Below are positions 1 to 15,695 of a stretch of 20,767 nt of DNA, piece by piece. How positions within the stretch are numbered: position 1 is the first letter of the stretch; each line of letters starts with the position of its first letter. The stretch is from a virus, in the UHGV virus genome UHGV-2126844; one strand, 5' to 3'. The position numbers and the translations under genes are program-made. The notes under the pieces were generated by a model that made no database searches, was not told the origin of the DNA, and saw nothing but the letters and a program-made list of their open reading frames with translations.

Positions 1-1284
1 TTACTTCTTCGCCTCTGCAACCACTTTACTACCCACGCCGCGGTTATTGTATTCCCACATGCGGTTGTAGTTAGTGTCATTCAGATTGCGCTGTATTTCG
101 TCGTTATCATCTACGCTGCCGGTATTACCCGCAAACGGACGATTAGAGATCACCGCATCGGCCCACGGTTTAGCCGTGTTAAAACCTTCGTTGATGGCGC
201 TATCACGGATCACCACCTGACCGTTGGTATTGGCATCAACATCCAGCGAGCGGCCCAGTTGCGCCACACCATCACCGAAAGCATTGAAACGGCTGTTTAC
301 GGCGAGGAAACCGTAGTAAATGTTGGACAGCGTAGCCGGTGCAAACACATACGCTTCTTGCTGAGTACGTGAGTTCACCACGCGGAATTCGGTGTTATCG
401 AACACCACTGCGCCGCGACCAGAAACGATATCCACATCCCCTTCAATGTAGCTGTTGGTCACCAGCGTACGCGGCTGACGATTTGTTTCCAGACGGTTCT
501 GCACACCGCTGTTGGTGACAAAGAAGGTGTTCTGACGACCGAGAATGTTAACGTTGTTAATCTGTACCTGGTCACCATCAGTACGCAGTGCCACCGCCGG
601 ATGGTTACCTGCATCTACGCTATCGCCCAGCGTGTTTTCGATGGTCAGATTTTGCAGTTGCAGGCCATTGTTTTGTGACCAGAAGACCGCAGAGCAGAGA
701 ACACCGATACTGTCGCTGCGTTTGCTCTGGCAGCTATCGTACATATACCACGCTGGTTTACCTGGCATATATTTGCCGCGCGGGTTGACGTCGTGACGCC
801 AGTCGGCAGGGCTCATGCCACCATCAAGGGAAAGCCCAATCTTCACATCAATCGGTTTTTCACCTGTACCGTACAGAGTAATTCCACCCGGAGCGGCAGG
901 GACATATACCGTTCCCTGATACTCACCAGGCATCACGGCAATATACTGGCGCTTGTTGGTACGCTTGATAATTGCCGCATCTACCGCCGCCTGAATCGTG
1001 GTATGCGTTACACCTTGAGTGCCCGCCGGGCCGACAACAAAGTCAGGTTGCGCAGGCAGGGTAATCGGGGAAGGATTCCACGCTGCAGCACCTGGTGTCA
1101 GGGATGCAAAATAGTGTTGAGCATCGAAATTCTGCGCTTCTTTTGCCGACAGAATCGGGCGAGAAGAGGTACCAGGCGCGGTTTGATCAGAAGGACGTTG
1201 ATCGGGCGGGGTTGAGCTACAGGCGGTCAGCGTCACGCCAAAAGCCAATGCCAGCGCCAGACGGGAAACTGAAAATGTGTTCAC
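1..1284 (-). CDS. ybhC: YbhC-like pectinesterase-family lipoprotein; host gene flanking the lambda attachment site
   Basis: Complete 427-aa ORF on the minus strand (ATG at 1284, TAA at 1-3). N-terminal signal peptide with lipobox LTAC. Sequence recognised as E. coli YbhC from memory; position immediately beside the lambda att core is consistent. Confidence 0.88.
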   Translation of the reverse strand: MNTFSVSRLALALAFGVTLTACSSTPPDQRPSDQTAPGTSSRPILSAKEAQNFDAQHYFASLTPGAAAWNPSPITLPAQPDFVVGPAGTQGVTHTTIQAAVDAAIIKRTNKRQYIAVMPGEYQGTVYVPAAPGGITLYGTGEKPIDVKIGLSLDGGMSPADWRHDVNPRGKYMPGKPAWYMYDSCQSKRSDSIGVLCSAVFWSQNNGLQLQNLTIENTLGDSVDAGNHPAVALRTDGDQVQINNVNILGRQNTFFVTNSGVQNRLETNRQPRTLVTNSYIEGDVDIVSGRGAVVFDNTEFRVVNSRTQQEAYVFAPATLSNIYYGFLAVNSRFNAFGDGVAQLGRSLDVDANTNGQVVIRDSAINEGFNTAKPWADAVISNRPFAGNTGSVDDNDEIQRNLNDTNYNRMWEYNNRGVGSKVVAEAKK

Positions 1285-1315
1285 AGGTTGCTCCGGGCTA
1301 TGAAATAGAAAAATG

Positions 1316-1420
1316 AATCCGTTGAAGCCTGCTTTTTTATACTAAGTTGGCATTATAAAAAAGCATTGCTTATCAATTTGTTGCAACGAACAGGTCACTA
1401 TCAGTCAAAATAAAATCATT
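1316..1420. other. attL: Prophage attL (B-O-P'): lambda core at 1331-1345, then P' arm with IHF-like site (1371-1383) and Int arm-type repeats (about 1393-1423)
   Basis: Exact 15-bp lambda common core GCTTTTTTATACTAA. Left flank (gaagcct) matches the bacterial B arm; right flank (gttggcattataaaaaagcattgcttatcaatttgttgcaacgaacaggtcactatcagtcaaaataaaatcatt) matches the lambda P' arm. int lies immediately adjacent. Confidence 0.88.
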
Positions 1421-2489
1421 ATTTGATTTCAATTTTGTCCCACTCCCTGCCTCTGTCATCACGATACTGTGATGCCATGGTGTCCGACTTATGCCCGAGA
1501 AGATGTTGAGCAAATTTATCGCTTATCTGCTTCTCATAGAGTCTTGCAGACAAACTGCGCAACTCGTGAAAGGTTGGCGGATCCCCTTCGAAGGAGAGAC
1601 CTGATGCTTTTCGTGCGCGCATAAAATACCTTGATACTGTGCCGGATGAAAGCGGTTCACGACGAGTAGATGCAATTATGGTTTCTCCGCCAAGAATCTT
1701 TTTGCATTTATCAAGTGTTTCCTTCATTGATATCCCGAGAGCATCAACATGCAATGTTGTTGGGATGGCAATTTTTACGCCTGTTTTGCTTTGCTCGACA
1801 TAAAGATATCCATCTACGATATCAGACCACTTCATTTCGCATAAATCACCAACTCGCTGCCCGGTAACAACAGCCAGTTCCATTGCAAGTCTAAGCCAAC
1901 ATGGTGATGATTCTGCTGCTTGATAAATTTTCAGGTATTCGTCAGCCGTAAGTCTTGATCTCCTTACCTCTGATTTTGCAGCGCGAGTGGCTGCGACCGG
2001 GTTTGTTGTTATATGGCCTTCAGCCATAGCCTCTCGGAATGCATCGCTCAGTGTTGATCTGATTAACTTGGCTGATGCCGCCTTTCCCTCGTCTATGTAT
2101 CCATTGAGCATTGCCGCAATTTCTTTTGTGGTGATGTCTTCAAGTGGAGCATCAGGCAGACCCCTCCTTATTGCTTTAATTTTGCTCATGTAATTTATGA
2201 GTGTCTTCTGCTTGATTCCTCTGCTGGCCAGGATTTTTTCGTAGCGATCAAGCCATGAATGTAACGTAACGGAATTATCACTGTTGATTCTCGCTGTCAG
2301 AGGCTTGTGTTTGTGTCCTGAAAATAACTCAATGTTGGCCTGTATAGCTTCAGTGATTGCGATTCGCCTGTCTCGGCCTAATCCAAACTCTTTACCCGTC
2401 CTTGGGTCCCTGTAGCAGTAATATCCATTGTTTCTTATATAAAGGTTAGGGGGTAAATCCCGGCGCTCATGACTTCGCCTTCTTCCCAT
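1419..2489 (-). CDS. int: Lambda-type tyrosine integrase Int (356 aa)
   Basis: Full-length ORF ending at the P' arm. Translation matches lambda Int as recalled (MGRRRSHERRDLPPNLYIRNNGYYCYRDPRTGKEFGLGRD...; catalytic region HELRSLSARLY ... LLGHKSDTMASQYRDDRG). Confidence 0.97.
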   Translation of the reverse strand: MGRRRSHERRDLPPNLYIRNNGYYCYRDPRTGKEFGLGRDRRIAITEAIQANIELFSGHKHKPLTARINSDNSVTLHSWLDRYEKILASRGIKQKTLINYMSKIKAIRRGLPDAPLEDITTKEIAAMLNGYIDEGKAASAKLIRSTLSDAFREAMAEGHITTNPVAATRAAKSEVRRSRLTADEYLKIYQAAESSPCWLRLAMELAVVTGQRVGDLCEMKWSDIVDGYLYVEQSKTGVKIAIPTTLHVDALGISMKETLDKCKKILGGETIIASTRREPLSSGTVSRYFMRARKASGLSFEGDPPTFHELRSLSARLYEKQISDKFAQHLLGHKSDTMASQYRDDRGREWDKIEIK

Positions 2490-2685
2490 TTCTGATCCTC
2501 TTCAAAAGGCTACCTGTTACTGGTCGATTTAAGTCAACCTTTACCGCTGATTCGTGGAACAGATATTCTCTTCCATCCTTAACCGGAGGAGGGAATATCC
2601 TGCATTCGCGCACCCATCGACGAACTGTTTCAAGGCTTCTTGGGCGTCGCTGGCGAGCGTTCCACTCCTGAAGTGTCAAGTACAT
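2467..2685 (-). CDS. xis: Excisionase Xis (72 aa)
   Basis: 72-aa ORF overlapping the int start, as in lambda. Translation MYLTLQEWNARQRRPRSLETVRRWVRECRIFPPPVKDGREYLFHESAVKVDLNRPV... matches lambda Xis as recalled. Confidence 0.95.
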   Translation of the reverse strand: MYLTLQEWNARQRRPRSLETVRRWVRECRIFPPPVKDGREYLFHESAVKVDLNRPVTGSLLKRIRNGKKAKS

Positions 2686-2711
2686 CGCAAAGTCTCCGCA
2701 ATTACACGCAA

Positions 2712-2733
2712 GAAAAAACCGCCATCAGGCGGC
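2712..2733 (-). terminator. Candidate rho-independent terminator on the minus strand (stem ccgcc/ggcgg, loop tgat, then UUUUUUCUU) overlapping the stop of the 55-aa ORF, just upstream of xis
   Basis: Read directly: plus strand aaaaaaccgccatcaggcgg; the minus-strand RNA forms a GC hairpin followed by a U-run. Strength and function not tested. Confidence 0.45.
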
Positions 2734-2892
2734 TTGGTGTTCTTTCAGTTCTTCAATTCGAATATTGGTTATGTCTGCATGTGCTATCTGCGCCCATATC
2801 ATCCAGTGGTCATAGCAGTCATTGATGTTCTCTGCTTCGATAACTCTGTTGAATGGTTCTCCATTCCATTCACCTGTGACTCGGAAGTGCAT
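2725..2892 (-). CDS. Small 55-aa ORF in the position and length of lambda's unnamed ORF upstream of xis
   Basis: ATG at 2892 preceded by GGAG; translation MHFRVTGEWNGEPFNRVIEAENINDCYDHWMIWAQIAHADITNIRIEELKEHQAA. Below the 60-aa cut-off of the supplied track; found by manual translation. Offset from int/xis matches my recollection of the lambda map. Confidence 0.55.
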   Translation of the reverse strand: MHFRVTGEWNGEPFNRVIEAENINDCYDHWMIWAQIAHADITNIRIEELKEHQAA

Positions 2893-2974
2893 TTATCATC
2901 TCCATAAAACAAAACTCGCCGTAGCGAGTTCAGATATAATTTCCACCAAAGGCAGTAGTTGCTGATGCTAAGAA

Positions 2975-3403
2975 TTATTCAATATCTATTCCTGTAATAT
3001 CTTTTATCTTTTTCCTTGCAAAGCCTTTTGCTAGTGATTTTGAAACACTTATTAGTGTACTAATTCCCTCATCCTTAAAGTTTGTTTTTATAGTTTGCCA
3101 GACCTCCTTTTGACGCAAGTCAGCAATAAAATCATGCCCTCTTGCTGTCAACCTCAGTGGTACTTCGATCCAACTATATCCAACACCTTCCCCTAACTCG
3201 TTGGACATTATATGACCGAACCCAGGTTTTCCATCAACCCTGACTATTAATTCGTAGTCGCATAATAATCGCATATGGAAAATAAAATTTTGGTCATATC
3301 TATTAAAGCCATTATCCTCTAGTTCACTAAGCATCGTGTCAGGGCCATGAGTTTTTTCGAATGCGATAAGTAGATCTTTTAGATATTGCTGGTCTAATTT
3401 CAT
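2975..3403 (-). CDS. Hypothetical 142-aa cytoplasmic protein, non-lambda; family not assignable by eye
   Basis: Clean ORF with a strong RBS (GGAGG, 6 nt before ATG at 3403). Occupies the position where lambda has ea8.5. No signal peptide or transmembrane segment. Translation MKLDQQYLKDLLIAFEKTHGPDTMLSELEDNGF... not recognised. Confidence 0.6.
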   Translation of the reverse strand: MKLDQQYLKDLLIAFEKTHGPDTMLSELEDNGFNRYDQNFIFHMRLLCDYELIVRVDGKPGFGHIMSNELGEGVGYSWIEVPLRLTARGHDFIADLRQKEVWQTIKTNFKDEGISTLISVSKSLAKGFARKKIKDITGIDIE

Positions 3404-3431
3404 TGCCGCCTCCGTGACATGTCACAGAGAT

Positions 3432-3770
3432 TTATATCATTAATTTTGTTTCGTGCCAGCCTTTGGTCACCCAGCATTGTGAGTCACCATTACACGGGCA
3501 TGAATTAACAGGAACTCTCTCGCCGCACTTACCGCAACGTTTTCTGCTGATCGATTTTATACGCCAGCGCACACGTGCATCATCCTGGCGGCTCAGTAAC
3601 GCGATGTACTCACCAAACTCGTAAGGCGCATGCCTGAAGCGGCGCGTGGCTCAGTTACGATCCAGCATTTCAATTTCCTGAGCATCAAGTACAAGCTCCA
3701 GCTTACGCATACCGGATGATGCTTGCTTGGCTCTCTGATCGACTTTGCGCTCTGCTGATGATTTAGCCAT
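3432..3770 (-). pseudogene. 112-codon frame encoding a ribbon-helix-helix-like N-terminus and a C-terminal zinc ribbon (CGKCG...CPCN...C), interrupted by an in-frame TGA at 3651-3653; nonsense-disrupted gene or two very small genes
   Basis: Manual translation: MAKSSAERKVDQRAKQASSGMRKLELVLDAQEIEMLDRN-stop-ATRRFRHAPYEFGEYIALLSRQDDARVRWRIKSISRKRCGKCGERVPVNSCPCNGDSQCWVTKGWHETKLMI. RBS AGGAAAAG before ATG at 3770. No in-frame ATG after the TGA; only a GTG about 46 codons from the end. Confidence 0.4.
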
Positions 3771-3964
3771 TCTGCTTTTCCTGCATTAGGAGAAAGACAA
3801 TCATGGCGGCGCGGATACTTCCGGTATCTTTTTACTCGATATTACCCTTCAATGGCACATACAAGAAGAGAGCCATCAACAGGAGTGAGTGAGGAATCGA
3901 CAACCAGCAACTCTTAATTATCTATAGTGTCGTATTTGCTTCATAAAATATGGCGAATAACACA

Positions 3965-3998
3965 AAGCCCGCAGCAGCTCATTGTGCGGGCTTTTCTT
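3965..3998 (-). terminator. Candidate intrinsic terminator hairpin (9-bp stem aagcccgca/tgcgggctt, 11-nt loop) between the 204-aa gene and the downstream operon; U-rich on both strands
   Basis: Read directly: plus aagcccgcagcagctcattgtgcgggcttttctt; minus-strand RNA has the same stem followed by uuugugUUaUU. Confidence 0.45.
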
Positions 3999-4063
3999 AT
4001 ACATACTTCCTAGAGATAATTCTATGGAGGCATTAAATTAATACTGTCATTGGTAATATCATA

Positions 4064-4678
4064 TTATCTAAAAGTCTTTCCACTTTTAACGTCTAGGTAT
4101 ATTCTGTTCGACAACGTCATTCCTCCGCAATATGTGAAATAGATGTTTTTCCCCTTATTGCTTGATGCCATCCACCCTCCGATTTCCTTAAAGTCGCTTT
4201 CCGTGCAGACCCCTTCGTTTATTAACTTCCTAGCTGCCGAAGAAAACTCTTTTTTGTATATACGGTAGTCATCAGATCCTTTGATTAAAGTATCATCTCC
4301 GCTCGCATTTTCAGCAGGATCTGATGGCCTTTCACTGCTAAGATCACTAAGTTTAACCCATTCTGAAAACTTGCCATTGACGATTCCGTTTTTTCTTGTG
4401 CAGGATTTATTACCTTCTTTAATATATTCGCTTTCCCCTCCCACACATGAGGCTGAATATGGCTCAGTTATACGAACCCATTCACCTTTTTTTTCTAGAA
4501 AATCTACGCCTTCCCTGAAAAATAGTTTCCCAGCCACTCCACATTTACTTGAAGGGCAGGTATGTCTTTCCGTTCGATCAACAACAACCCAAAGTCTTGA
4601 TTCATTTTTTGCCATTGCCGATGGTATTTGAGATGAGACAATTAACGTAAGCCCTAAAATTAGTATTGATTTTTTCAT
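4064..4678 (-). CDS. Secreted or periplasmic cysteine-rich hypothetical protein (204 aa) with a cleavable signal peptide; prophage cargo
   Basis: N-terminus MKKSILILGLTLIVSSQIPSAMA-KNES is a typical Sec signal peptide with an AxA cleavage site. Mature part has 7 Cys and two similar ...GxW/FxEWV+... segments. RBS AAGGAA before ATG. Terminator-like hairpin downstream. Not a lambda gene. Confidence 0.65.
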   Translation of the reverse strand: MKKSILILGLTLIVSSQIPSAMAKNESRLWVVVDRTERHTCPSSKCGVAGKLFFREGVDFLEKKGEWVRITEPYSASCVGGESEYIKEGNKSCTRKNGIVNGKFSEWVKLSDLSSERPSDPAENASGDDTLIKGSDDYRIYKKEFSSAARKLINEGVCTESDFKEIGGWMASSNKGKNIYFTYCGGMTLSNRIYLDVKSGKTFR

Positions 4679-4976
4679 TGTAATTTCCTTTTACTTTTTA
4701 CAAAGCGTTTAATCATGGCTGATTATCTTTAAGCGTAGTAACAGCCTTGTGCGAAACATGTTACCAAATCGCCATTTCAGTGTATCCGCAGTTAGGCTGC
4801 CACTTCAAGGATTCCTAATTACATGGTACGTAAGCGTAAAATCCCGTTGGTTGTCGGGTAATAACTCTGATCAAATCTCCCTTGTCTTTTGCTCTTACGT
4901 ATGCAGCTCTTGTGTATTCAACCCAGGCCTCCAGTTCAGCAATACGCTTACTTCCATCCGAGATAACACCTTCTAC

Positions 4977-5228
4977 TCACGCTGCTCGTTGAGTTTTGAT
5001 TTTTGCTGTCTCCAGCTCAACACGCAGTTTCCTCACCGTTAGCGCAATATCCTCGTTCTCCTGGTCGCGGCGTTTGATGTACTGCTGGTTTCTTTCCCGT
5101 TCATCCAGCAGTGTCAGCACAATCGATGGTGTTACCAGCTCATGGAAAAGGTCCGCGTCAAATCCCCAGTTGTCATGCATTGCCTGCTCTGCCGCTTCAC
5201 GCAGTGCCTGAGAGTGAATTACGCTCAC
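4977..5228 (-). CDS. 83-aa ORF at the ea22 position, translationally coupled to orf73 (GTGA overlap); the same frame continues for 53 codons past an in-frame TGA (4977-4979) to TAG at 4815-4817
   Basis: Track ORF MSVIHSQALREAAEQAMHDNWGFDADLFHELV...KTQRAA (the M is a GTG start). Manual translation after the TGA: VEGVISDGSKRIAELEAWVEYTRAAYVRAKDKGDLIRVITRQPTGFYAYVPCN. Assignment to ea22 is by position only. Confidence 0.5.
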   Translation of the reverse strand: MSVIHSQALREAAEQAMHDNWGFDADLFHELVTPSIVLTLLDERERNQQYIKRRDQENEDIALTVRKLRVELETAKIKTQRAA

Positions 5229-5446
5229 TTCGAACCTCTCTGTTTACTGATAAGTTCCAGATCCTCCTGGCAACTTGCACAAGTCCGACAACCCTGAACG
5301 GCCAGGCGTCTTCGTTCATCTATCGGATCGCCACACTCACAACAATGAGTGGCAGATATAGCCTGGTGGTTCAGGCGGCGCATTTTTATTGCTGTGTTGC
5401 GCTGTAATTCTTCAATTTCTGATGCTGAATCAATGATGTCTGCCAT
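5225..5446 (-). CDS. orf73: TraR/DksA-family C4 zinc-finger protein (73 aa), lambda Orf73-like
   Basis: 73-aa ORF with CxxC...CxxC (CCECGDPIDERRRLAVQGCRTCASCQ), characteristic of TraR-like RNA-polymerase-binding proteins. Size and position between the ea22 region and exo match lambda orf73 as recalled. Confidence 0.8.
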   Translation of the reverse strand: MADIIDSASEIEELQRNTAIKMRRLNHQAISATHCCECGDPIDERRRLAVQGCRTCASCQEDLELISKQRGSK

Positions 5447-5495
5447 CTTTCATTAATCCCTGAATTGTTGGTTAATACGCTTGAGGGTGAATGCG

Positions 5496-5522
5496 AATAA
5501 TAAAAAAGGAGCCTGTAGCTCC
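5496..5522 (-). terminator. Candidate rho-independent terminator on the minus strand (stem ggagc/gctcc, then UUUUUUAUUAUU) between the 5545-5826 ORF and orf73; possibly a tL-type terminator of the early-left operon
   Basis: Read directly: plus aataataaaaaaggagcctgtagctcc; minus RNA hairpin followed by a U-run. Identity with a named lambda terminator not verified. Confidence 0.45.
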
Positions 5523-5544
5523 CTGATGATTTTGCTTTTCATGT

Positions 5545-5826
5545 TCACCGTTCCTTAAAAACGCCGTTTAACATGCCGATTGCTAGACTTAAATGAGTCG
5601 GTGTGAATCCCATCAGCGTTACCGTTTCGCGGTGCTTCTTCAGTACGCTACGGCAAATGTCATCGACGTTTTTATCCGGAAACTGCTGTCTGGCTTTTTT
5701 GATTTCAGAATTAGCCTGACGGGCAATGCTGCGAAGGGCGTTTTCCTGCTGAGGTGTCACTGAACAAGCCCCATGTCGGCAAGCATAAGCACACAGAATA
5801 TGAAGCCCGCTGCCAGAAAAATGCAT
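5545..5826 (-). CDS. Hypothetical early-left ORF (up to 93 aa; true start uncertain) in the orf61 region
   Basis: Track ORF ending ...ETVTLMGFTPTHLSLAIGMLNGVFKER. Overlapped in another frame by a 27-aa hydrophobic ORF (MTTTECIFLAAGFIFCVLMLADMGLVQ, 5757-5840) that is start/stop-coupled to orf63. I could not reconcile either frame with lambda orf61 from memory. Confidence 0.35.
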   Translation of the reverse strand: MHFSGSGLHILCAYACRHGACSVTPQQENALRSIARQANSEIKKARQQFPDKNVDDICRSVLKKHRETVTLMGFTPTHLSLAIGMLNGVFKER

Positions 5827-5836
5827 TCAGTGGTTG

Positions 5837-6028
5837 TCATACCTGGTCTCTCTCATCTGCTTCTGCTTTCGCCACCATCATTTCCAGTTTTTGTGAAAGG
5901 GATGTGGCTAACGTATGAAATTCTTCGTCTGTTTCTACTGGTATTGGCACAAACCTGATTCCAATTTGAGCAAGGCTATGTGCCATCTCGATACTCGTTC
6001 TTAACTCAACAGGAGATGCTTTGTGCAT
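5837..6028 (-). CDS. Lambda orf63-like small protein (63 aa)
   Basis: 63-aa ORF. Position and length relative to exo match lambda orf63 as recalled; the sequence itself was not recalled independently. Confidence 0.55.
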   Translation of the reverse strand: MHKASPVELRTSIEMAHSLAQIGIRFVPIPVETDEEFHTLATSLSQKLEMMVAKAEADERDQV

Positions 6029-6183
6029 ACAGCCCCTCGTTTATTATTTATCTCCTCAGCCAGCCGCTGTGCTTTCAGTGGATTTCGGATAACAGAAAGG
6101 CCGGGAAATACCCAGCCTCGCTTTGTAACGGAGTAGACGAAAGTGATTGCGCCTACCCGGATATTATCGTGAGGATGCGTCAT
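6001..6183 (-). CDS. Lambda orf60a-like small protein (60 aa)
   Basis: The ORF overlaps the exo start by 4 nt when started at the ATG at 6183 ([29 protein letters not shown]...). The track's 62-aa version starts two codons upstream. Length and position match lambda orf60a as recalled. Confidence 0.55.
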
Positions 6184-6860
6184 CGCCATTGCTCCCCAAA
6201 TACAAAACCAATTTCAGCCAGTGCCTCGTCCATTTTTTCGATGAACACCGGCACCATCTCGTCAAAACTCGCCATGTACTTTTCATCCCGCTCAACCACG
6301 ACATAATGCAGTCCTTCACGCTTCATACGCGGGTCATAGTTGGCAAAGTACCAGGCATCTTTTCGTGTCACCCACATGCTGTACTGCACCTGGGCCATGT
6401 AAGCCGACTTTATGGCCTCGAAACCACCGAGCCGGAACTTCATGAAATCCCGGGAGGTAAACGGGCATTTCAGCTCAAGGCCATTGCCGTCACTGCATAA
6501 ACCATCGGGAGAGCAGGCGGTGCGCATACTTTCGTCGCGATAGATGATCGGGGATTCAGTAACATTCACGCCGGAAGTGAATTCAAACAGGGTTCTGGCG
6601 TCGTTCTCGTACTGTTTTCCCCATGCCAGCGCCTTAGCATTAACTTCCGGAGCCACACCGGTGCAAACCTCAGCCAGCAGGGTGTGGAAGTAGGACATTT
6701 TCATGTCAGGCCACTTCTTTCCTGAGCGGGGCTTGGCTATCACGTTGTGAACTTCTGAAGCGGTGATGACGCCGAGCCGTAATTTGTGCCATGCATCATC
6801 CCCCTGTTCGACAGCTCTCACGTCGATCCCGGTACGCTGCAGGATAATGTCCGGTGTCAT
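6180..6860 (-). CDS. exo: Lambda exonuclease (Red-alpha), 226 aa
   Basis: Full-length ORF; translation [65 protein letters not shown]... matches lambda Exo as recalled. Confidence 0.96.
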
Positions 6861-7300
6861 GCTGCCACCTTCTGCTCAGTGGCTTTCTGTTTCAGGAATC
6901 CAAGAGCTTTCACTGCTTCGGCCTGTGTCAGTTCTGACGATGCGCGAATGTCGCGGCGAAATATCTGGGAACAGAGCGGCAATAAGTCGTCATCCCATGT
7001 TTTGTCCAGGGCAATCAGCAGAGTGTTAATCTCCTGCATGGTTTCATCGTTAACCGGAGTAATGTCGCGTTCCGGCTGACGTTCTGCGGTGTATGCGGTA
7101 TTTTCGACAATGCGCTCGGCTTCATCCTTGTCATAGATACCAGCAAATCCGAAGGCCAGACGGGCACACTGAATCATGGCTTTATGCCGTAACATCCGTT
7201 TGGGATGCGACTGCCACGGCCCCGTAATTTCTCTGCCTTCGCGGGTTTTGAATGGTTCGCGGCGGCATTCATCCATCCACTCGGTAACGCAGATCGGATG
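6857..7300 (-). pseudogene. bet: 5'-truncated bet (Red-beta): only about the C-terminal 140-145 codons remain; homology ends near 7300 with an in-frame TAG immediately upstream
   Basis: Minus-frame translation ...NHPICVTEWMDECRREPFKTREGREITGPWQSHPKRMLRHKAMIQCARLAFG...KATEQKVAA matches the C-terminal half of lambda Bet. Upstream of about 7300 the sequence is unrelated and AT-rich. Confidence 0.85.
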
Positions 7301-7462
7301 ATTACCGGTTCGCTACCAGGGAAGAACGGGAAGGAAAGGTGAGCACGAATCTGATTTTCAAGGAGTGTCGCCAGAGTGCCGCGATGAAGCGGGTGTTGGC
7401 ATTTTATCGCGGCAATTTTCAATAGACTATGTACATAAAAATATCATTTTTTTAATACATGT

Positions 7463-7654
7463 CTAATTATTGGACGAAATTGGTTTTTGCTTTGGTTTAG
7501 TTAGCCTAGCAATCAAGCCAGAGGCAATAATGATGATCCAAGCAATTTGATGCAATGCTACTCCAATATAAGAACCTTTATAGATAATAAAGGCATAGAT
7601 CGCTAGAAACGAAATAAATATCCATAACGAAAGTTGATAAATTTTGGCGCGCAT
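7463..7654 (-). CDS. Small hypothetical two-helix membrane protein (63 aa from ATG; 68 aa from an upstream TTG)
   Basis: Two strongly hydrophobic segments (IYQLSLWIFISFLAIYAFIIY; IAWIIIIASGLIARL) and a Lys-rich tail. Weak RBS. Sits in AT-rich inserted DNA, divergent from the lipoprotein operon. Confidence 0.35.
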   Translation of the reverse strand: MRAKIYQLSLWIFISFLAIYAFIIYKGSYIGVALHQIAWIIIIASGLIARLTKPKQKPISSNN

Positions 7655-7910
7655 ATTTAATCCAATCAATCAGAAAGACGAGTAATCATAGAGGTACTAT
7701 CACCCGGGTAACTATTGCTATTATGAACGGATAGGATAGAGGCTTCAATAACATATGCATCAAGTATGATGGAATATGTAGGTGAAAATGACTTGTGTCA
7801 AATTTGTGGAAATGAGTACCATGTTTCTCTGAAATTGATGTCGTTAATGGCTAGTGATAGTGAACTTTTTTACTTTATAATTCCTTTGGTTATAACAATA
7901 AGGTAAATTT

Positions 7911-8471
7911 ATGAAGAAGATAATATTATTAGCCATGATTATTGGTTCTTTAACAGGTTGCGCTAGTGTGCCACCATTGAATTTTTCAACACCTAACGTG
8001 GGAGTTAGCCAGAAAAAAATAGATGCTGAAATTAAGTCATTAACGGTATCACTTGCTCGTCCAGATGAGCAGAAAGGGGATATCACTGCTGGTATGGAGG
8101 CTATAACTCCAATTTGGCGTGAATCTTTGCAGGAAGCACTCGACCGAATGACTATTTTTCGTGATAGTTCACCAAATACGGTTAGCTTAAATGTTAAAGT
8201 GTTGGCTCTTGACGTTCCTGCTTTTGGTGTTTCAATGACAACTAAAGCAATTGCAAGGTATGAAATAATCAACCGTGCGAATGGTGATATTATATATACG
8301 CAGGATATTGAGTCTACCGGTACTGTTCCAGCCAGTTACGCATTCTACGGTATTGTTCGAGCACGCGAATCTGTTAATCGCGCGGTGCAAAACAACATAA
8401 CGCAGTTCTTGCAAGCATTAGAAAGTGTTGATCTTTCTCGTCCAATGTTTCCTGTTAGGGTAGCTAAATGA
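7911..8471 (+). CDS. Hypothetical outer-membrane lipoprotein (186 aa), first gene of a coupled two-lipoprotein operon
   Basis: Signal peptide with lipobox LTGC (MKKIILLAMIIGSLTGC|ASV) and Ala at +2. RBS AAGG 7 nt before ATG. Stop overlaps the next gene's start (ATGA). Family not recognised. Confidence 0.72.
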   Translation: MKKIILLAMIIGSLTGCASVPPLNFSTPNVGVSQKKIDAEIKSLTVSLARPDEQKGDITAGMEAITPIWRESLQEALDRMTIFRDSSPNTVSLNVKVLALDVPAFGVSMTTKAIARYEIINRANGDIIYTQDIESTGTVPASYAFYGIVRARESVNRAVQNNITQFLQALESVDLSRPMFPVRVAK

Positions 8472-8920
8472 AGCGATTATTCGTAATTGCTCCACTCTTA
8501 GTGTTGGTTGGATGCGCACAAAATATATCGCCAAATAGTTATTCTGTTGGCTCTGTGGGCATGGTTAATCGAACTATCGCTGGTACAGTTATTAGTGCTA
8601 GGGGGGTTGATATCAGTGGGACTTCCGCGTTAGGCGGGACTGCTGGGGCTGCCGTGGGGGCAACCGCTGGTTCTGCGCTTGGTGGGGGAGTTCGTTCTAA
8701 TATCGTTGGTGCCGTTGGTGGTGCAGTCATTGGTGGTATTGCCGGGGCAGCAATCGAATCTTCAGCAACAAAACAAACAGGCATGGAATATGTTGTCGAA
8801 ACTGAGAATGGGAATTTAATGATCATTGTTCAAGGCAAAGATCCGTTATTTACTCAAGGAAGTAAGGTCCTTGTTTTATACGGAAACCCTTCTCGCATAA
8901 TAACAGACCCGCGTCACTAA
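8468..8920 (+). CDS. SlyB-family glycine-zipper outer-membrane lipoprotein (150 aa)
   Basis: Lipobox LVGC. Long Gly/Ala zipper (GGTAGAAVGATAGSALGGGVRSNIVGAVGGAVIGGIAGAAI) and a C-terminal beta-rich segment (GMEYVVETENGNLMIIVQGKDPLFTQGSKVLVLYGN) that aligns by eye with the E. coli SlyB architecture. Confidence 0.78.
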   Translation: MKRLFVIAPLLVLVGCAQNISPNSYSVGSVGMVNRTIAGTVISARGVDISGTSALGGTAGAAVGATAGSALGGGVRSNIVGAVGGAVIGGIAGAAIESSATKQTGMEYVVETENGNLMIIVQGKDPLFTQGSKVLVLYGNPSRIITDPRH

Positions 8921-9012
8921 CATACCTTTTGATTTTGTAAAATCAATTCGTAATAATAAAGTCATCGGAGCTTGAACAACTCCGGTGACTTCTGCGCTAA
9001 ACGGGGACGTTT

Positions 9013-9114
9013 ATGCGCACATACAATCCAAACTCTCTTCTCCCTTCACAGATGCAGAAATGCACCTGCGATTTTTTGCATCCAGCGTCTGACCTCTGCG
9101 GAGGTGAAGCGTGA
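9013..9114 (+). CDS. ylcH: DLP12-type small protein YlcH (33 aa)
   Basis: Manual translation [33 protein letters not shown]. Stop overlaps the GTG start of the next gene. Below the track cut-off. Name from recalled DLP12 gene order. Confidence 0.5.
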
Positions 9115-9566
9115 ACCTACCACAAGATGGCATCAAACTGCATCGCGGTAACTTCACCGCTATCGGCCAGCAGATCCAGCCTTATCTGGAGGACGGAAAA
9201 TGCTTTCGCATGGTGCTTAAACCGTGGCGTGAGAAACGCAGTCTTTCCCAGAATGCACTCAGCCACATGTGGTACAGCGAAATCAGTGAATACCTCATCA
9301 GCAGGGGGAAATCGTTCGCTACCGCAGCATGGGTAAAAGATGCTCTCAAACACACATACCTCGGTTATGAAACCAAGGACCTGGTTGATGTCGTAACCGG
9401 CGAAATCACTACTATCCAGTCGTTACGCCATACCTCCGATCTTGATACCGGAGAGATGTATATCTTCCTGTGTAAGGTTGAAGCCTGGGCGGTGAATATT
9501 GGCTGCCACCTGACTATTCCGCAGAGCTGCGAGTTCCAGCAGCTCCGCGACAAACAGGAGGCGTAA
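9111..9566 (+). CDS. ybcN: YbcN-like prophage protein (151 aa, GTG start)
   Basis: Translation [55 protein letters not shown]... recognised as DLP12 YbcN. RBS GAGGTGAAG upstream. Confidence 0.78.
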
Positions 9567-9736
9567 TGGCTACACCGCTTATTCGTGTCATGAACGGACA
9601 CATCTACAGAGTACCAAATCGTCGTAAGCGTAAACCGGAGCTGAAGCCTTCCGAAATACCAACACTGCTCGGATATACCGCCAGCCTGGTTGATAAAAAA
9701 TGGTTGCGACTGGCAGCAAGGAGGAGTCATGGCTGA
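9566..9736 (+). CDS. ninE: NinE-family protein (56 aa)
   Basis: Manual translation [56 protein letters not shown]. Start overlaps the ybcN stop (TAATG). Below the track cut-off. Confidence 0.7.
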   Translation: MATPLIRVMNGHIYRVPNRRKRKPELKPSEIPTLLGYTASLVDKKWLRLAARRSHG

Positions 9737-10019
9737 TTTGAGAAAAGCAGCGCGTGGTCGGGAATGCCAGGTAAGAATCCCTGGCGTATGTAATGGCAAC
9801 CCTGAAACGTCTGTACTGGCACATATCCGGCTGACTGGATTGTGCGGCACCGGTACGAAACCGCCAGACCTGATTGCCACCATTGCATGTTCTGCCTGCC
9901 ACGACGAAATCGACCGCCGCACACATTTTGTCGATGCTGCATATGCAAAAGAATGCGCGCTGGAAGGTATGGCGAGAACACAGGTTATCTGGCTGAAAGA
10001 GGGGGTTATTAAGGCGTGA
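9729..10019 (+). CDS. ybcO: YbcO-like prophage protein with a Cys-rich motif (96 aa)
   Basis: From the internal ATG at 9729 (RBS GGAGGAG): [64 protein letters not shown]... Recognised as DLP12 YbcO. Confidence 0.78.
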
Positions 10020-10378
10020 ATACCTACAGCATCACATTACCCTGGCCTCCGAGCAATAATCGCTATTACCGCCATAATCGCGGGCGCACACACATCAGCG
10101 CAGAAGGGCAGGCATACCGCGATAACGTCACCCGAATCATTAAAAACGCAATGCTGGATATCGGCCTGGCTATGCCAGTGAAAATCCGTATTGAGTGCCA
10201 CATGCCGGATCGCCGTCGCCGTGACCTGGATAATCTGCAAAAAGCCGCTTTTGACGCACTCACCAAAGCAGGTTTCTGGCTGGATGATGCTCAGGTCGTT
10301 GATTACCGCGTTGTGAAGATGCCTGTTACCAAAGGTGGGAGGCTGGAACTGACCATCACCGAAATGGGGAATGAATGA
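10016..10378 (+). CDS. rusA: Holliday-junction resolvase RusA (120 aa)
   Basis: Translation [97 protein letters not shown]... matches RusA as recalled. Confidence 0.95.
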
Positions 10379-10515
10379 TGTTTGAGTTTAATATGGCAGA
10401 ACTTCTTCGCCACCGCTGGATGCGCCTGCGCTTATATCGTTTCCCCAGTTCTGTTTTGACCGATTACCGAATACTGAGGAATTACGCCAAAACCCTGACA
10501 GGAGCAGGAGTATGA
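10378..10515 (+). CDS. ylcG: YlcG-like small protein (45 aa)
   Basis: Manual translation [45 protein letters not shown]. Start overlaps the rusA stop (TGATG). Confidence 0.55.
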   Translation: MFEFNMAELLRHRWMRLRLYRFPSSVLTDYRILRNYAKTLTGAGV

Positions 10516-10600
10516 AGTCAGAGATAACAATCAACTAATACTGTTTTATTGATTTTTGCTTGTAATTGGCGTTCTGGTCTGATTTTTGTGGAGTAAGTTG

Positions 10601-10984
10601 ATGCGTGATATTCAGATGGTTCTTGAGCGTTGGGGAGCGTGGGCGGCTAATAATCATGAAGATGTGACCTGGTCGTCCATTGCCGCCGGTTTTAAGGGAT
10701 TAATTACTTCAAAAGTAAAATCTCGCCCGCAATGTTGTGACGATGACGCGATGATCATTTGCGGGTGCATGGCCCGTCTGAAAAAGAACAACAGCGATTT
10801 GCACGATTTATTAGTAGATTATTATGTAGTCGGTATGACATTCATGTCACTGGCAGGTAAGCATTGCTGCTCTGATGGTTATATCGGGAAAAGGTTACAG
10901 AAGGCTGAGGGTATAATTGAAGGGATGTTAATGGCATTAGATATCCGGTTAGAGATGGATATCGTTGTTAATAACTCTAATTAA
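10601..10984 (+). CDS. quuD: Q-family late-gene antiterminator (QuuD / phage 82 type), 127 aa
   Basis: From ATG at 10601 (RBS GGAG): [60 protein letters not shown]..., with the Cys-rich zinc motif typical of Q proteins. The track's longer version starts at an upstream TTG. Confidence 0.85.
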
Positions 10985-11000
10985 TATGCCAATTGTTTAC

Positions 11001-11037
11001 TAAAAATTATTAAAAATGGGGCGTTGAGACGCCCCCA
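11001..11037 (-). terminator. Rho-independent terminator on the minus strand downstream of nmpC (stem ggggcg/cgcccc, loop tctcaa, then AUUUUUAAUAAUUUUU)
   Basis: Read directly: plus taaaaattattaaaaatggggcgttgagacgcccc. Confidence 0.5.
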
Positions 11038-11172
11038 AAAATAAAGGGTAATATATAACAGAAGGTTTATATAGTTAGAAGCAAGGTTGTGCTCCTAAAG
11101 GAAGTGGCTTGAGGGAGCCACTTATATGTTGGGGAGGCAAAGCCTCCCGCAACATATCTTTTAGTAATCAAA

Positions 11173-12255
11173 TTAGAACTGGTAAACCATACCTACAGCA
11201 ACGATATCATCGGTAGCAACGCCAGATGCTTTCGTGAAATCGCTCTTATCAATCAGGTTGATTTTGTAATCAACAAAAGTGGACATATTTTTGTTGAAGT
11301 AATAGGTTGCACCTACATCAATATATTCAACCAGGTCCTGATCACCCCACGCACCCAAGTCTTTTCCTTTAGATTGCAGGTAAGCAACGGACGGACGCAG
11401 ACCGAAGTCGAACTGATATTGTGCAACTACTTCGAAGTTTTGTGCTTTGTTGGCAATATGGTTATTACCAAAAACAGTCATGTTCTGGGTTTCAGAATAG
11501 GTGGTAGCCAGATAGATGTTGTTCGCATCATATTTCAGACCAGCTGCCCATACTTCAGCATTTTGACCAGATGCATTCAGGCTGTTGTTACCGTAGATAA
11601 CCTGATTATTAGTGCGGTCAGATTTAGCATAGGTTGCACCTACACCGAATCCTTCATACTCATAAGTAGTGGAGAAACCGAAACCATCACCATTAGCTTC
11701 AGTTACGTCAGTGCGGTCATTTTTACCCTGATACTGAGCAGCAAAGTTCAGACCATCAACCAGACCAAAGAAGTCATTGTTACGATAAGTTGCAACACCT
11801 GTGGTGCGACCAGTCATGAATACATCTGTTTGGGTCCAGGTATCGCCACCGAATTCTGGCAGAACGTCGGTCCATGCACCAATATCGTATGCTACACCGT
11901 AGTTACGGCCATAATCGATGGAGCCGTAGTCACCGAATTTCAGGCCAGCGAAGGCAAGACGGGTTTTATCTTTGGAGGAACCTTGAGATTCAGCGCGGTT
12001 GCCTTTGAATTCATATTCCCACTGACCGAAACCAGTCAGTTGATCGTTGATTTGGGTTTCACCTTTGAAGCCAAGACGGGCATAAGTAGTATCACCATCA
12101 TCTGCATCATTAGAGGAGAAGTAGTGCTTAGCATTAACTTTCCCGTACAGATCCAGCTTGTTACTGTCTTTATTATAAATTTCAGCTGCCTGAGCAGACA
12201 TCGCCATCAGTACTGATGCAGCTACAGCAGAAATTGCCACTGTTAATTTTTTCAT
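11173..12255 (-). CDS. nmpC: OmpC/OmpF-family general porin NmpC, apparently intact (360 aa precursor)
   Basis: Start taken at [23 protein letters not shown] (signal peptide); ends ...VAVGMVYQF with the C-terminal Phe typical of porins. Uninterrupted frame. Lies opposite in orientation between Q and the lysis genes. Confidence 0.9.
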
Positions 12256-12681
12256 CGTGAGCCCTTTTTTTGAACTATTATTAAAAAATGATGTCACTGC
12301 GCGATAAATATTCATCTAATCAATGTGATTATTTCAAGATGTAAGTTTTGGTTTCTCATTTGATTTGTGAAGTAGATCTCTATTTTTATCTGAACTTTTT
12401 CTATCGAATCCTATTCATGGCTCTTGGCTGAATAAAAATAAATCTATTAGCCAATTTATATTAATGGCTGTTATTTATAAGTGCTCTATAATTTGAAGAT
12501 TCAATTTAAACCAGCTAAAAATAACGCTGGAAATTATTTGTTGGTTATTTGTTGAGATTTGCTTATGTATTTGTAGTGGTGTTTTCAATACTCGGTAGCA
12601 TTCTCGCAAATATCATTTAGTGGTTTACGTACGTAAAAAATTGGTTATGCTGTTAAGAGTGGTTACTTCGTCACACAGCTT

Positions 12682-12716
12682 AAACCCGCCGTCGAGCGGG
12701 TTTTTCCATTTTTTGA
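12682..12716 (+). terminator. Rho-independent terminator on the plus strand (stem aaacccgc/gcgggttt, then UUCCAUUUUUU) upstream of the holin gene; candidate tR'-like terminator of a short late leader transcript
   Basis: Read directly: aaacccgccgtcgagcgggtttttccattttttgag. A promoter-like TTTACG-16 nt-TATGCT lies about 60 nt upstream. The tR' assignment is inference from lambdoid late-operon architecture. Confidence 0.45.
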
Positions 12717-12842
12717 GTCTCGATATTAGCTGATAACCCAATACCTGAGTTATTCACTGACTCCGAGTCTGTTACGTTTCTGCTTTTTTGCGATACGTTG
12801 TATTCCCTCAATTTACACCCGCTTTGTCTGCGAGGTGGGGTT

Positions 12843-13058
12843 ATGAAATCCATGGATAAGTTAACAACGGGTGTCGCCTATGGCACCTCAGCAGGTAGTG
12901 CCGGTTACTGGTTTTTACAGCTGCTCGATAAAGTCACGCCCTCACAGTGGGCAGCAATAGGTGTGCTGGGTAGCCTGGTATTTGGCCTGCTGACGTACCT
13001 GACAAACCTTTATTTCAAGATTAAAGAAGATAAGCGCAAGGCTGCGAGAGGTGAATAA
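12843..13058 (+). CDS. essD: Class II holin (EssD / S21-like), 71 aa
   Basis: From ATG at 12843: [71 protein letters not shown]; two TM segments and a charged C-terminus. Confidence 0.85.
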
Positions 13059-13555
13059 TGCCTCCATCATTACGAAAAGCCGTTGCTGCTGCTATTGGTG
13101 GCGGAGCAATTGCTATAGCATCAGTGTTAATTACTGGCCCAAGTGGTAACGATGGTCTGGAAGGTGTCAGCTACGTACCATACAAAGATATCGTTGGCGT
13201 ATGGACTGTATGTCACGGACACACCGGAAAAGACATCATGCTCGGTAAAACGTATACCAAAGCAGAATGCAAAGCACTCTTGAATAAAGACCTTGCCACT
13301 GTCGCCAGACAAATTAACCCGTACATCAAAGTCGATATACCGGAAACAACGCGCGGCGCTCTTTACTCATTCGTTTACAACGTGGGTGCTGGCAATTTCA
13401 GAACATCGACGCTTCTTCGCAAAATAAACCAGGGCGATATCAAAGGCGCATGTGATCAGCTACGTCGCTGGACATATGCTGGCGGTAAGCAATGGAAAGG
13501 TCTCATGACTCGTCGTGAGATTGAGCGTGAAATCTGTTTGTGGGGTCAGCAATGA
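13058..13555 (+). CDS. rrrD: Phage lysozyme / endolysin (RrrD-like), 165 aa
   Basis: Start overlaps the holin stop (TAATG). Translation [59 protein letters not shown]... recognised as the DLP12-type lysozyme. Confidence 0.9.
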
Positions 13556-14013
13556 ACAGAGTAACCGCGATTATCTCCGCTCTGGTTATCTGCATCATCG
13601 TCTACCTGTCATGGGCTGTTAATCATTACCGTGATAACGCCATTACCTACAAAGCCCAGCGCGACAAAAATGCCAGAGAACTGAAGCTGGCGAACGCGGC
13701 AATTACTGACATGCAGATGCGTCAGCGTGATGTTGATGCGCTCGATGCAAAATACACGAAGGAGTTAGCTGATGCGAAAGCTGAAAATGATGCTCTGCGT
13801 GATGATGTTGCCGCTGGTCGTCGTCGGTTGCACATCAAAGCAGTCTGTCAGTCAGTGCGTGAAGCCACCACCGCCTCCGGCGTGGATAATGCAGCCTCCC
13901 CCCGACTGGCAGACACCGCTGAACGGGATTATTTCACCCTCAGAGAGAGGCTGATCACTATGCAAAAACAACTGGAAGGAACCCAGAAGTATATTAATGA
14001 GCAGTGCAGATAG
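13552..14013 (+). CDS. rzpD: Inner-membrane spanin Rz (RzpD), 153 aa
   Basis: From ATG at 13552 overlapping the endolysin stop: [60 protein letters not shown]...; N-terminal TM anchor and coiled-coil region. Confidence 0.85.
13772..13954 (+). CDS. rzoD: Outer-membrane lipoprotein spanin Rz1 (RzoD), 60 aa, embedded in the +1 frame of Rz
   Basis: [24 protein letters not shown]... with a lipobox and a proline-rich tail ([18 protein letters not shown]); classic embedded Rz1 arrangement. Confidence 0.8.
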
Positions 14014-14044
14014 AGTTGCCCATATCGATGGGCAACTCATGCAA

Positions 14045-14338
14045 TTATTGTGAGCAATACACACGCGCTTCCAGCGGAGTATAAATGCCTAAAGTAATAA
14101 AACCGAGCAATCCATTTACGAATGTTTGCTGGGTTTCTGTTTTAACAACATTTTCTGCGCCGCCACAAATTTTGGCTGCATCGACAGTTTTCTTCTGCCC
14201 AATTCCAGAAACGAAGAAATGATGGGTGATGGTTTCCTTTGGTGCTACTGCTGCCGGTTTGTTTTGAACAGTAAACGTCTGTTGAGCACATCCTGTAATA
14301 AGCAGGGCCAGCGCAGTAGCGAGTAGCATTTTTTTCAT
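14045..14338 (-). CDS. borD: Bor lipoprotein (serum-resistance family), 97 aa
   Basis: MKKMLLATALALLITGCAQQTFTVQNKPAAVAPKETITHHFFVSGIGQKKTVDAAKICGGAENVVKTETQQTFVNGLLGFITLGIYTPLEARVYCSQ matches lambda Bor as recalled. Confidence 0.9.
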   Translation of the reverse strand: MKKMLLATALALLITGCAQQTFTVQNKPAAVAPKETITHHFFVSGIGQKKTVDAAKICGGAENVVKTETQQTFVNGLLGFITLGIYTPLEARVYCSQ

Positions 14339-14628
14339 GGTGTTATTCCCGATGCTTTTTGAAGTTCGCAGAATCGTATGTGTAGAAAATTAAACAAACC
14401 CTAAACAATGAGTTGAAATTTCATATTGTTAATATTTATTAATGTATGTCAGGTGCGATGAATCGTCATTGTATTCCCGGATTAACTATGTCCACAGCCC
14501 TGACGGGGAACTTCTCTGCGGGAGTGTCCGGGAATAATTAAAAACGATGCACACAGGGTTTAGCGCGTACACGTATTGCATTATGCCAACGCCCCGGTGC
14601 TGACACGGAAGAAACCGGACGTTATGAT

Positions 14629-15042
14629 TTAGCGTGGAAAGATTTGTGTAGTGTTCTGAATGCTCTCAGTAAATAGTAATGAATTATCAAAGGTATAGTA
14701 ATATCTTTTATGTTCATGGATATTTGTAACCCATCGGAAAACTCCTGCTTTAGCAAGATTTTCCCTGTATTGCTGAAATGTGATTTCTCTTGATTTCAAC
14801 CTATCATAGGACGTTTCTATAAGATGCGTGTTTCTTGAGAATTTAACATTTACAACCTTTTTAAGTCCTTTTATTAACACGGTATTATCGTTTTCTAACA
14901 CGATGTGAATATTATCTGTGGCTAGATAGTAAATATAATGTGAGACGTTGTGACGTTTTAGTTCAGAATAAAACAATTCACAGTTTAAATCTTTTCGCAC
15001 TTGATCGAATATTTCTTTAAAAATGGCAACCTGAGCCATTGG
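14629..15042 (-). CDS. ybcV: YbcV-like protein of the lambda right-end region (136 aa from the RBS-supported ATG)
   Basis: Start chosen at [18 protein letters not shown]... with RBS GGAAGG upstream. The track's 177-aa version begins at an upstream GTG with no RBS. The surrounding DNA matches the lambda right end between bor and cos as recalled. Confidence 0.65.
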
Positions 15043-15531: not shown

Positions 15532-15695
15532 TCACCATAACTGCTAATCATTCAAACTATTTAGCCTGTGACAGAGCCAACACGCAGTCTGTCACTGTCA
15601 GGAAAGTGGTAAAACTGCAACTCAATTACTGCAATGCCCTCGTAATTAAGTGAATTTACAATATCGTCCTGTTCGGAGGGAAGAACGCGGGATGT

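Follow-up and report, generated by a model that had tools for sequence, protein, structure and literature searches.

A bet'::'ren junction in a defective lambda-type prophage of Escherichia coli, probably left by one internal deletion

How did the bet gene of a lambda-type prophage come to end abruptly in its middle, and how much of the phage was lost with it? The stretch of DNA analysed here (the window; 20,767 nucleotides) is E. coli chromosome that holds a prophage where lambda classically integrates, between ybhC and ybhB (Table 1). A first-pass annotation had remarked that Bet homology stops near 7300 with an in-frame TAG, had placed a deletion or replacement inside bet, and had described the DNA beyond the break as unrelated and AT-rich. 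The abrupt edge and the TAG are where that annotation put them (homology ends at 7303-7305). A deletion with its breakpoint in bet also stands, but the replacement does not, the junction partner being ren and the AT-rich block being native phage cargo.

The gene map, including ybhC, int and xis, was drawn from the PGAP annotation of E. coli PEC1009, which is near-identical to the window over positions 1-16787 (99.96%, 6 differences). Allowing up to 1 mismatch, the attL core of the lambda attachment site has no other match in the window, against a chance expectation of 0, and in NCTC9104 an attR-like core precedes ybhB, which is followed by bioA. We compared the window with lambda (NC_001416, positions 27000-48502) by blastn, which returned four collinear blocks and nothing else. 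Taken with the alignments to the intact phage PhiR30_1 (PV340558) and to the K-12 prophage DLP12, and with the PGAP annotation, these blocks show the scar to be flanked by genes in lambdoid order, with att, int, xis and, further on, exo to its left, and ren, nin, Q and the lysis genes to its right. The nin region is of the DLP12 type, opening with ylcH and ybcN and continuing through ninE, ybcO, rusA, ylcG and quuD.

Table 1. Features of the prophage and its surroundings, in window coordinates, with the later deletions seen in other carriers of the junction.
Feature	Position	Strand	Description
ybhC	1-1284	minus	
attL core of the lambda attachment site	1331-1345	+	GCTTTTTTATACTAA; between ybhC and int; exact match
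Lambda block 1 (int-xis)	1331-2940		lambda 27724-29333; 97.9% (blastn)
int	1419-2489	minus	full length; PGAP 'tyrosine-type recombinase/integrase' in PEC1009
xis	2467-2685	minus	full length; PGAP 'excisionase' in PEC1009
Lambda block 2 (ea22, exo, C-terminal part of bet)	4930-7305		lambda 30094-32473; 97.1% (blastn)
exo	6180-6860	minus	226 aa, full length; cut off from pL
bet fragment	6857-7303	minus	Bet residues 114-261 (148 of 261 aa)
bet::ren deletion junction	7301-7305		every base is bet or ren, none left over
Lambda block 3 (3' end of ren)	7301-7400		lambda 40449-40548; 93% (blastn)
ren fragment	7306-7425	+	last ~40 codons (residues ~58-97) and stop; no start codon, no promoter
In-frame TAG closing the bet frame upstream	7313-7315	minus	in antisense ren sequence; 8-10 nt beyond the junction
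AT-rich cargo block, ren-ninB interval	~7426-8950		GC 0.32-0.40
Small hydrophobic ORF	7463-7669	minus	63 aa version at 7466-7654
186-aa ORF	7911-8471	+	
150-aa ORF	8468-8920	+	glycine-zipper lipoprotein-like
ylcH	9013-9114	+	PGAP annotation of PEC1009
ybcN/ninB-type gene	9111-9566	+	PGAP annotation of PEC1009; PHROG 72 NinB/Orf
Lambda block 4	13552-16089		lambda 45966-48502 (blastn)
Second deletion junction	16783-16787		truncated nohD fused to tail-fibre gene fragment; microhomology ATACC
Variant B1 (JNQH497)	deleted 5131-6830		7 genomes; microhomology GGT; exo deleted
Variant B2 (A14)	deleted 5571-6832		4 genomes; microhomology TA; exo deleted
Variant C (RM10410)	deleted 3639-5810 and 6835-7281		6 genomes; microhomology 8 bp imperfect and CGGTA, respectively; bet' and first 8 codons of exo lost
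Variant D (VG48B2)	deleted 2449-6125		1 genome; microhomology TA; int fused to orf60a

The first-pass annotation had proposed mapping the breakpoints against lambda and DLP12-type prophages and looking there for microhomology or IS scars, and this mapping placed the lambda edges at 32473 and 40449. Bet homology runs to 7305 when the window is aligned with lambda or with the prophage of strain 38, and to 7303 when it is aligned with PhiR30_1, while the ren side is perfect from 7301. The alignments from the two sides share 3-5 bp, both flanks are collinear with the intact reference, and no filler DNA separates them. With the breakpoint marked by a slash, parental bet reads GGATGATTAC/GGTCC in the lambda allele and GGATGATT/GCGG in PhiR30_1, and parental ren reads GTGTATTAC/CGGTT. 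One copy of a short direct repeat is kept at the junction; the shared ATT (7301-7303) is certain, and the match extends to ATTAC (7301-7305) if the ancestral bet had the lambda-type allele. Both bet alleles are abundant in IMG/VR, and the haplotypes nearest to the exo and bet' of the window disagree (the first two read ATTGCGG, giving 3 bp, and the third ATTACGG, giving 5 bp), hence the microhomology is reported as 3-5 bp. A random join would show at least 3 bp of microhomology with p ~0.05 and at least 5 bp with p ~0.005; 3 bp is thus only marginally above chance. The absent interval corresponds to lambda 32474-40453 (7,980 bp) or to 6,374 bp of PhiR30_1, and the deleted length is given as a range of 6-8 kb because it depends on the immunity module that the true ancestor carried.

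In the alignments, the junction is what one deletion at a short direct repeat leaves, and very probably this was an internal deletion in a lambda-type prophage integrated at attB-lambda, with ybhC and ybhB on either side. The rival that survives best is a deletion directed by an enzyme, whether an IS-mediated adjacent deletion, Int acting at secondary att sites, or RecA acting between repeats. Intact int and xis genes, IS remnants at the far right end of the prophage, and the re-use of endpoints by several later deletions, which hints at non-random breakage, would all suit such an event. However, neither IS sequence, IS end nor transposase was found at or near 7301-7305, where bet and ren account for all bases, so that of the two signatures sought there only the microhomology, a short one, is present. 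Nor did the window scan for att core-like sequence find any at the breakpoint, the attL core being the sole match. The 3-5 bp of shared identity are far too short for RecA, and the junction DNA, folded in search of a hairpin or quasi-palindrome, did no better than shuffled sequence (z = -0.33). We therefore regard an enzyme-directed deletion as very improbable.

The junction is not peculiar to the window. Among 5,426 complete genomes, 24 carry it in identical form, all at ybhC; a probe of 120 bp spanning the junction has full-length matches in 18 independent genomes, and a further 6 keep 7282-7363. Because the same junction recurs in independent complete genomes, it is not an assembly artefact. 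Across the junction region, identity among the carriers is 99.9% or higher, and their sharing of the junction could partly reflect transfer by homologous recombination and not vertical descent. Further losses came later and nest around it, with 2-8 bp of microhomology at each (variants B1, B2, C and D, Table 1). On the right arm, a second deletion separates the window from NCTC9104. Window positions 14691-16787 correspond to 5692-7788 of the NCTC9104 locus and positions 16783-20767 to 9665-13649, with 1,876 bp missing relative to NCTC9104, and no complete genome has the right arm of the window in one piece. In PEC1009 this arm holds a nohD'::'lom fusion, part of lom and a full tail-fibre gene, whereas NCTC9104 has a complete nohD, with its 3' end kept, and a terminase-large fragment fused to a tail-fibre fragment. 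Since PEC1009 and NCTC9104 share the bet'::'ren junction, yet each holds DNA that the other lacks, the bet'::'ren deletion predates at least two independent losses of morphogenesis genes.

What the deletion left of the lambda Red module (Exo, Bet and Gam) is a full-length Exo, without a full-length Bet and without Gam. Residues 1-226 of lambda Exo match the exo of the window at 98.2% identity (tblastn), and its score against the lambda-exonuclease family model TIGR03033 (54.7 bits, E 1.2e-14) lies under the curated cutoff of that model, 68.05. Residues 114-261 of lambda Bet are placed at 7303-6860 with 99.3% identity (tblastn); residues 1-113 are gone, which removes the start codon and half of the annealing domain (its N-terminal part), pL is lost as well, and only positions 125-195 of the 198 in the Pfam RecT profile are covered. 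PGAP accordingly labels the fragment in PEC1009 'recombinase RecT, incomplete, missing N-terminus'. Translated on the minus strand in the bet frame (6857-7345), the sequence runs through LPW to the stop and resumes with RTGNHPICVTEWMDECRR beyond it. An ORF of 139 aa begins at an ATG at 7276 and spans the entire Bet C-terminal domain, which in Red-beta is the part that contacts Exo.

These remains raise the possibility of domestication, in which the host uses Exo, possibly together with the C-terminal Bet fragment, and the arrangement is kept for that reason. The full length of exo and its closeness to lambda Exo, the 139-aa ORF, and leftward promoter-like sites upstream would be in keeping with such a use, but the carriers do not preserve it: exo is deleted in 11 of the 24, another 6 lack bet' and the first 8 codons of exo, and 7 keep both. 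DLP12 of K-12 likewise retains just 264 bp of exo, and with carriers at least 99.9% identical, an intact ORF is uninformative on selection. Domestication is, in our judgement, more improbable still than an enzyme-directed deletion. The orphan Exo, which the first-pass annotation had singled out as unusual, looks like a transient stage of decay and not a maintained feature, because exo and bet' survive side by side in only 7 of the 24 carriers. Both bet' and 'ren are pseudogenes, and exo is an intact, promoter-less leftover that is presumably silent in transcription.

On the other side of the junction, the DNA is ren. The ren fragment ends in YRFATREEREGKVSTNLIFKECRQSAAMKRVLAFYRGNFQ and a stop at 7423-7425, and PGAP records it in PEC1009 as 'protein ren, incomplete, missing N-terminus', abutting the RecT fragment at window position 7303. 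The fall in GC content from ~0.53 to ~0.32 starts only near 7420, after ren, and from 7292 onward the match to PhiR30_1 has 99.8% identity. In that intact phage the order is P, ren, a hypothetical gene, the 186-aa ORF, the 150-aa ORF and NinB, and the arrangement of P, ren and the AT-rich block recurs in 246 of the 5,426 complete E. coli genomes. The cargo ORFs match PHROG families 12521 and 13877, both of unknown function, and have no match in NCBIfam or among the defence systems of PADLOC. The AT-rich block is ordinary phage cargo, native to the ren-ninB interval and older than the deletion; because it follows a complete P-ren in PhiR30_1 and in the 246 genomes, it had no part in the event. 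A replacement, in which a foreign AT-rich island displaced the gam-to-P region and the junction marks its edge, could draw on the sharp GC fall ~120 bp beyond the junction and on ORFs with no assigned function, but it was rejected as the least credible reading, since the DNA at the junction itself is ren and not AT-rich, and the block lies behind intact ren in functional PhiR30_1, in the 246 complete genomes and in strain 38. Two descriptions in the first-pass annotation change with this: the AT-rich DNA is neither unrelated nor adjacent to the break, being the normal neighbour of the ren 3' end that adjoins it, and the next phage gene after the junction is not ylcH or ybcN, which are preceded by the ren fragment and three phage-borne cargo ORFs.

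Promoter-like sites occur in the cargo block on both strands, in numbers that the scan finds to be no greater than in shuffled sequence. Those pointing leftward lie at 7801-7773, 7748-7720 and 7465-7438, and between them and the sole minus-strand terminator-like site (6119-6097) there is no other such terminator. Read-through from these sites into bet' and exo would be possible in principle, though unsupported. With promoter-like sites of its own, the cargo block may be the only obviously autonomous transcription unit nearby.

The loss of the gam-to-P genes, as first described, was borne out. We searched the whole window by tblastn with lambda and PhiR30_1 proteins, and for Gam, Kil, CIII, Ea10, Ral, SieB, N, RexA/B, CI, Cro, CII, O and P nothing scored better than E = 0.03. 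Repressor, N, O and P are also absent from the PGAP annotation of PEC1009, and other immunity-type alleles were covered by that annotation and by Pfam and PHROG scans of the larger unknown ORFs, all negative; the cI, N or O/P homologues that would have contradicted the first-pass annotation were not found by any of these searches. Besides genes, the window has lost pL, pR, the nut sites, ori-lambda and the first ~57 codons of ren. Because the control and replication region is gone, the element should, judged by its gene content, be unable to repress, to replicate or to antiterminate through N, as had been argued from the gene loss, and it is predicted to be non-inducible and non-excising. The deletion leaves exo, like the genes to its left, without pL, and ybcN, rusA and quuD without pR, so it is a reasonable inference, drawn already in the first-pass annotation, that the remaining genes need promoters of their own. 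This fits what is known of rusA in the promoter-less nin region of DLP12, where the gene is quiescent and is expressed only after insertion of IS2 or IS10 upstream supplies a promoter (PMC1636454).

How a single deletion would produce this arrangement can be set out in a few steps. In the intact phage, bet in the leftward pL operon and ren in the rightward pR operon lie 6-8 kb apart and divergent, and because both are natively divergent, a plain deletion explains their tail-to-tail fragments with no inversion needed. An illegitimate join would then have paired a short direct repeat, ATT or ATTAC, in bet with the same letters in ren. What lay between the two copies was removed: bet lost its 5' half and ren the 5' 60% of its length, and gam, kil, cIII, N, nutL, pL/oL, the exclusion genes, cI, pR/oR, cro, nutR, cII, O with ori, and P were lost completely. 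Slippage during replication, or end joining at the microhomology, is the likely mechanism; either would be RecA-independent, and neither site-specific nor IS-mediated. With the repressor and the early promoters gone in one step, the lysogen may survive; the loss of cI would be tolerated because pL, pR, N, kil, O, P and ori went with it. Loss of pL and cII would also remove the known drivers of int and xis expression and leave the prophage effectively locked in. A non-inducible lysogen would escape prophage-mediated death, which may confer a selective advantage, and the remnant would afterwards decay through small deletions. A plausible selective route to such prophages is offered by the replicative-killing survivors of the Hayes laboratory. 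There, a lambda fragment that cannot excise kills its host when its replication is induced, and the rare survivors (10^-6 to 10^-8) carry lesions that block the initiation of lambda replication, among them insertions or deletions that inactivate O or P (PMC3640518). In contrast to the present case, those survivors were laboratory constructs selected at 42 C; natural selection of the bet'::'ren deletion is something we infer only.

The nearest relatives of the window show both the undeleted state and comparable scars. PhiR30_1 is collinear with it through exo, bet, ren, the cargo block and nin, and lambda through att, int, xis, ea22, exo, bet, ren and the interval from Rz to cos; identities to the two phages range from 97 to 99.8%, with 93% for the ren block of lambda. 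Unlike the window, both phages have the early control and replication genes, occupying 6.4 kb in PhiR30_1 and 8.0 kb in lambda, as well as head and tail genes. The prophage of strain 38 (NZ_CP048376), at the same locus, has the same left arm, cargo block and nin genes, but it carries an independent bet'::'P deletion that lost the same control genes at a microhomology of 4 bp (ACCA). Its breakpoint lies 114 bp further into bet, with 561 bp kept, and it retains 231 bp of P and an intact ren. In DLP12, as in the window, what remains of a left-arm recombination gene is joined to the last part of the replication region. Its junction joins exoD' (lambda 31322-31627) to peaD (the 3' end of P, from lambda 39972) at the microhomology TA, and the deletion removed bet, gam, kil, cIII, N, immunity and O. 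Over window positions 8927-16787 (nin, Q, porin, lysis genes and nohD) the two are 96-97% identical (96.9% over 8927-11214), and both have tail-fibre assembly remnants and an AraC-family regulator after nohD. However, DLP12 sits at argU with a different integrase, and its breakpoints are in exo and P, as opposed to bet codon 114 and ren codon ~58. Its exo is reduced to the 264-bp fragment where that of the window is intact, IS3 interrupts renD, and the cargo after ren consists of emrE and ybcK-M, without the block of the 186-aa and 150-aa ORFs. The finding is thus a scar of the DLP12 type that lies at another att site and has other breakpoints. It is an ordinary and already annotated kind of prophage decay, the immunity-replication deletion of a defective (cryptic) lambdoid prophage.

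Across the junctions compared here, some endpoints recur. Variants B1, B2 and C have an endpoint in common to within 4 bp, at window positions 6831-6834 (GGTA), and nohD at 16783-16788 (GATACC) is the endpoint of both the nohD'::'stf fusion of the window and the nohD'::'lom fusion of PEC1009. By a rough estimate from ~20 endpoints in ~20 kb, ~0.08 coincidences are expected, compared with four pairs observed. We also noticed, post hoc, TAC or TAAC at the crossover in most junctions examined, including those of bet::ren (GATTAC/C) and DLP12 (GGTA/CG). Folding of the two re-used endpoints revealed no hairpin or quasi-palindrome better than shuffles (z = 0.65 and -1.97), and RusA, RuvC, gyrase and restriction-site motifs gave no consistent fit to the TAC-rich junctions. 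A probe over the exo-bet boundary was intact in 3,207 genomes, at a resolution too coarse to reveal other truncations there. It is conceivable, though we think it unlikely, that decay of these prophages is non-random and proceeds by sequence-directed breakage or template switching as opposed to plain slippage, with the bet-to-ren/P interval lost repeatedly by a preferred one-step route of domestication. If so, the repeated loss would include this lineage, strain 38 and DLP12.

On its own, the finding matters little, and it bears on the minor question of whether prophage deletions have preferred endpoints. It does change how the AT-rich block is to be understood, as cargo of the phage and not as replacement DNA. 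It also provides a base-resolved example of a one-step disarming, in which the repressor, the early promoters, N, kil and the replication genes were lost together; because control and replication genes went in the same step, the event would not have been lethal. The 24 genomes, with the same scar and different later deletions, form an ordered series of decay in which the deletion of the control region came before the loss of head and tail genes.

Among genomes that carry the bet'::'ren scar, the deletion junction at window 7301-7305, three separate secondary deletions (L004, L005 and L008) have endpoints within the same 4 bp, the sequence GGTA at window 6831-6834, which lies 26-29 nt into exo, counted from its 5′ terminus. 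The clustering of three endpoints in so short a stretch suggests a deletion hotspot. A hairpin was looked for at this endpoint and none was found. The DNA retained in each of these later-deletion variants (B1, B2 and C) is listed in the table below. A further apparent pattern, spotted post hoc, is that TAC or TAAC lies at the crossover in most deletion junctions of the prophage family and of DLP12, the cryptic lambdoid prophage of E. coli K-12. The crossover sequences are GATTAC|C, CGGTA|ACG, GGT|ACG, TTTA|CG, GGTTA|ACG, GGTA|CG and GATACC|, and the junctions compared were window 7301-7305 and 16783-16787, together with L002 4414-4417, L004 3831-3835, L005 7001-7003, L008 6001-6002, L009 6001-6002 and L007 2877-2878.

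The window also contains a nohD'::tail-fibre junction at 16783-16788, with the microhomology ATACC, where 1,876 bp are absent relative to NCTC9104 (L010 7788 and 9665). This junction was found in one piece in none of 5,426 complete genomes. PEC1009 carries a different deletion, nohD'::'lom (L001 19788), which breaks nohD at the same base as in the window.

To the left of exo, a non-lambda segment at 2900-5000 stands in place of lambda ea8.5 and part of ea22, and most of it is deleted in variant C genomes. The AT-rich cargo block had no match in PADLOC or NCBIfam, and its annotations disagree, being given as 'YajG family lipoprotein', 'UDP-N-acetylglucosamine acyltransferase' or 'outer membrane lipoprotein'. 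The intact reference phage PhiR30_1 has the order P, ren, block, as do 246 complete E. coli genomes. Between quuD and the lysis genes lies a porin gene that is uninterrupted, whereas nmpC of K-12 DLP12 is broken by IS5. At the prophage's right end, an AraC-family regulator occupies the place of DLP12 appY. An att-like core with one mismatch (ACTTTTTTATACTAA) is present in NCTC9104 before ybhB, approximately 225 bp past the position of the window end.

Features of the window and DNA retained in the later-deletion variants
Feature	Position	Direction	Remarks
DUF2513 protein	2975-3403		in non-lambda segment
Pseudogene	within 2900-5000		internal stop
'DNA repair protein' fragment	within 2900-5000		66 bp
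204-aa ORF	4064-4678		PHROG 8310, family without assigned function
Variant B1	from 6831	rightward	DNA retained
Variant B2	from 6833	rightward	DNA retained
Variant C	up to 6834		left-hand DNA retained
AT-rich cargo block	7426-8950		GC 0.32-0.40; between ren and ylcH/ybcN
Hydrophobic ORF	7463-7669	leftward	63-68 aa
186-aa ORF	after hydrophobic ORF	rightward	PHROG 12521
150-aa ORF	after 186-aa ORF	rightward	glycine-zipper lipoprotein-like; PHROG 13877
Porin gene	11173-12315	minus	intact; PGAP: ompC; nmpC-like
AraC-family regulator	19242-19994		best match YdeO/GadX-type, weak
IS/transposase remnants	20036-20767		right end of prophage

In E. coli strain 38 (NZ_CP048376, L002), the related prophage stops directly after the Q gene, which is followed by a lipocalin gene and ybgA rather than by the lysis genes and ybhB. 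These neighbors suggest that a much larger deletion or rearrangement has affected both the right arm of the prophage and the adjoining chromosome in this strain.
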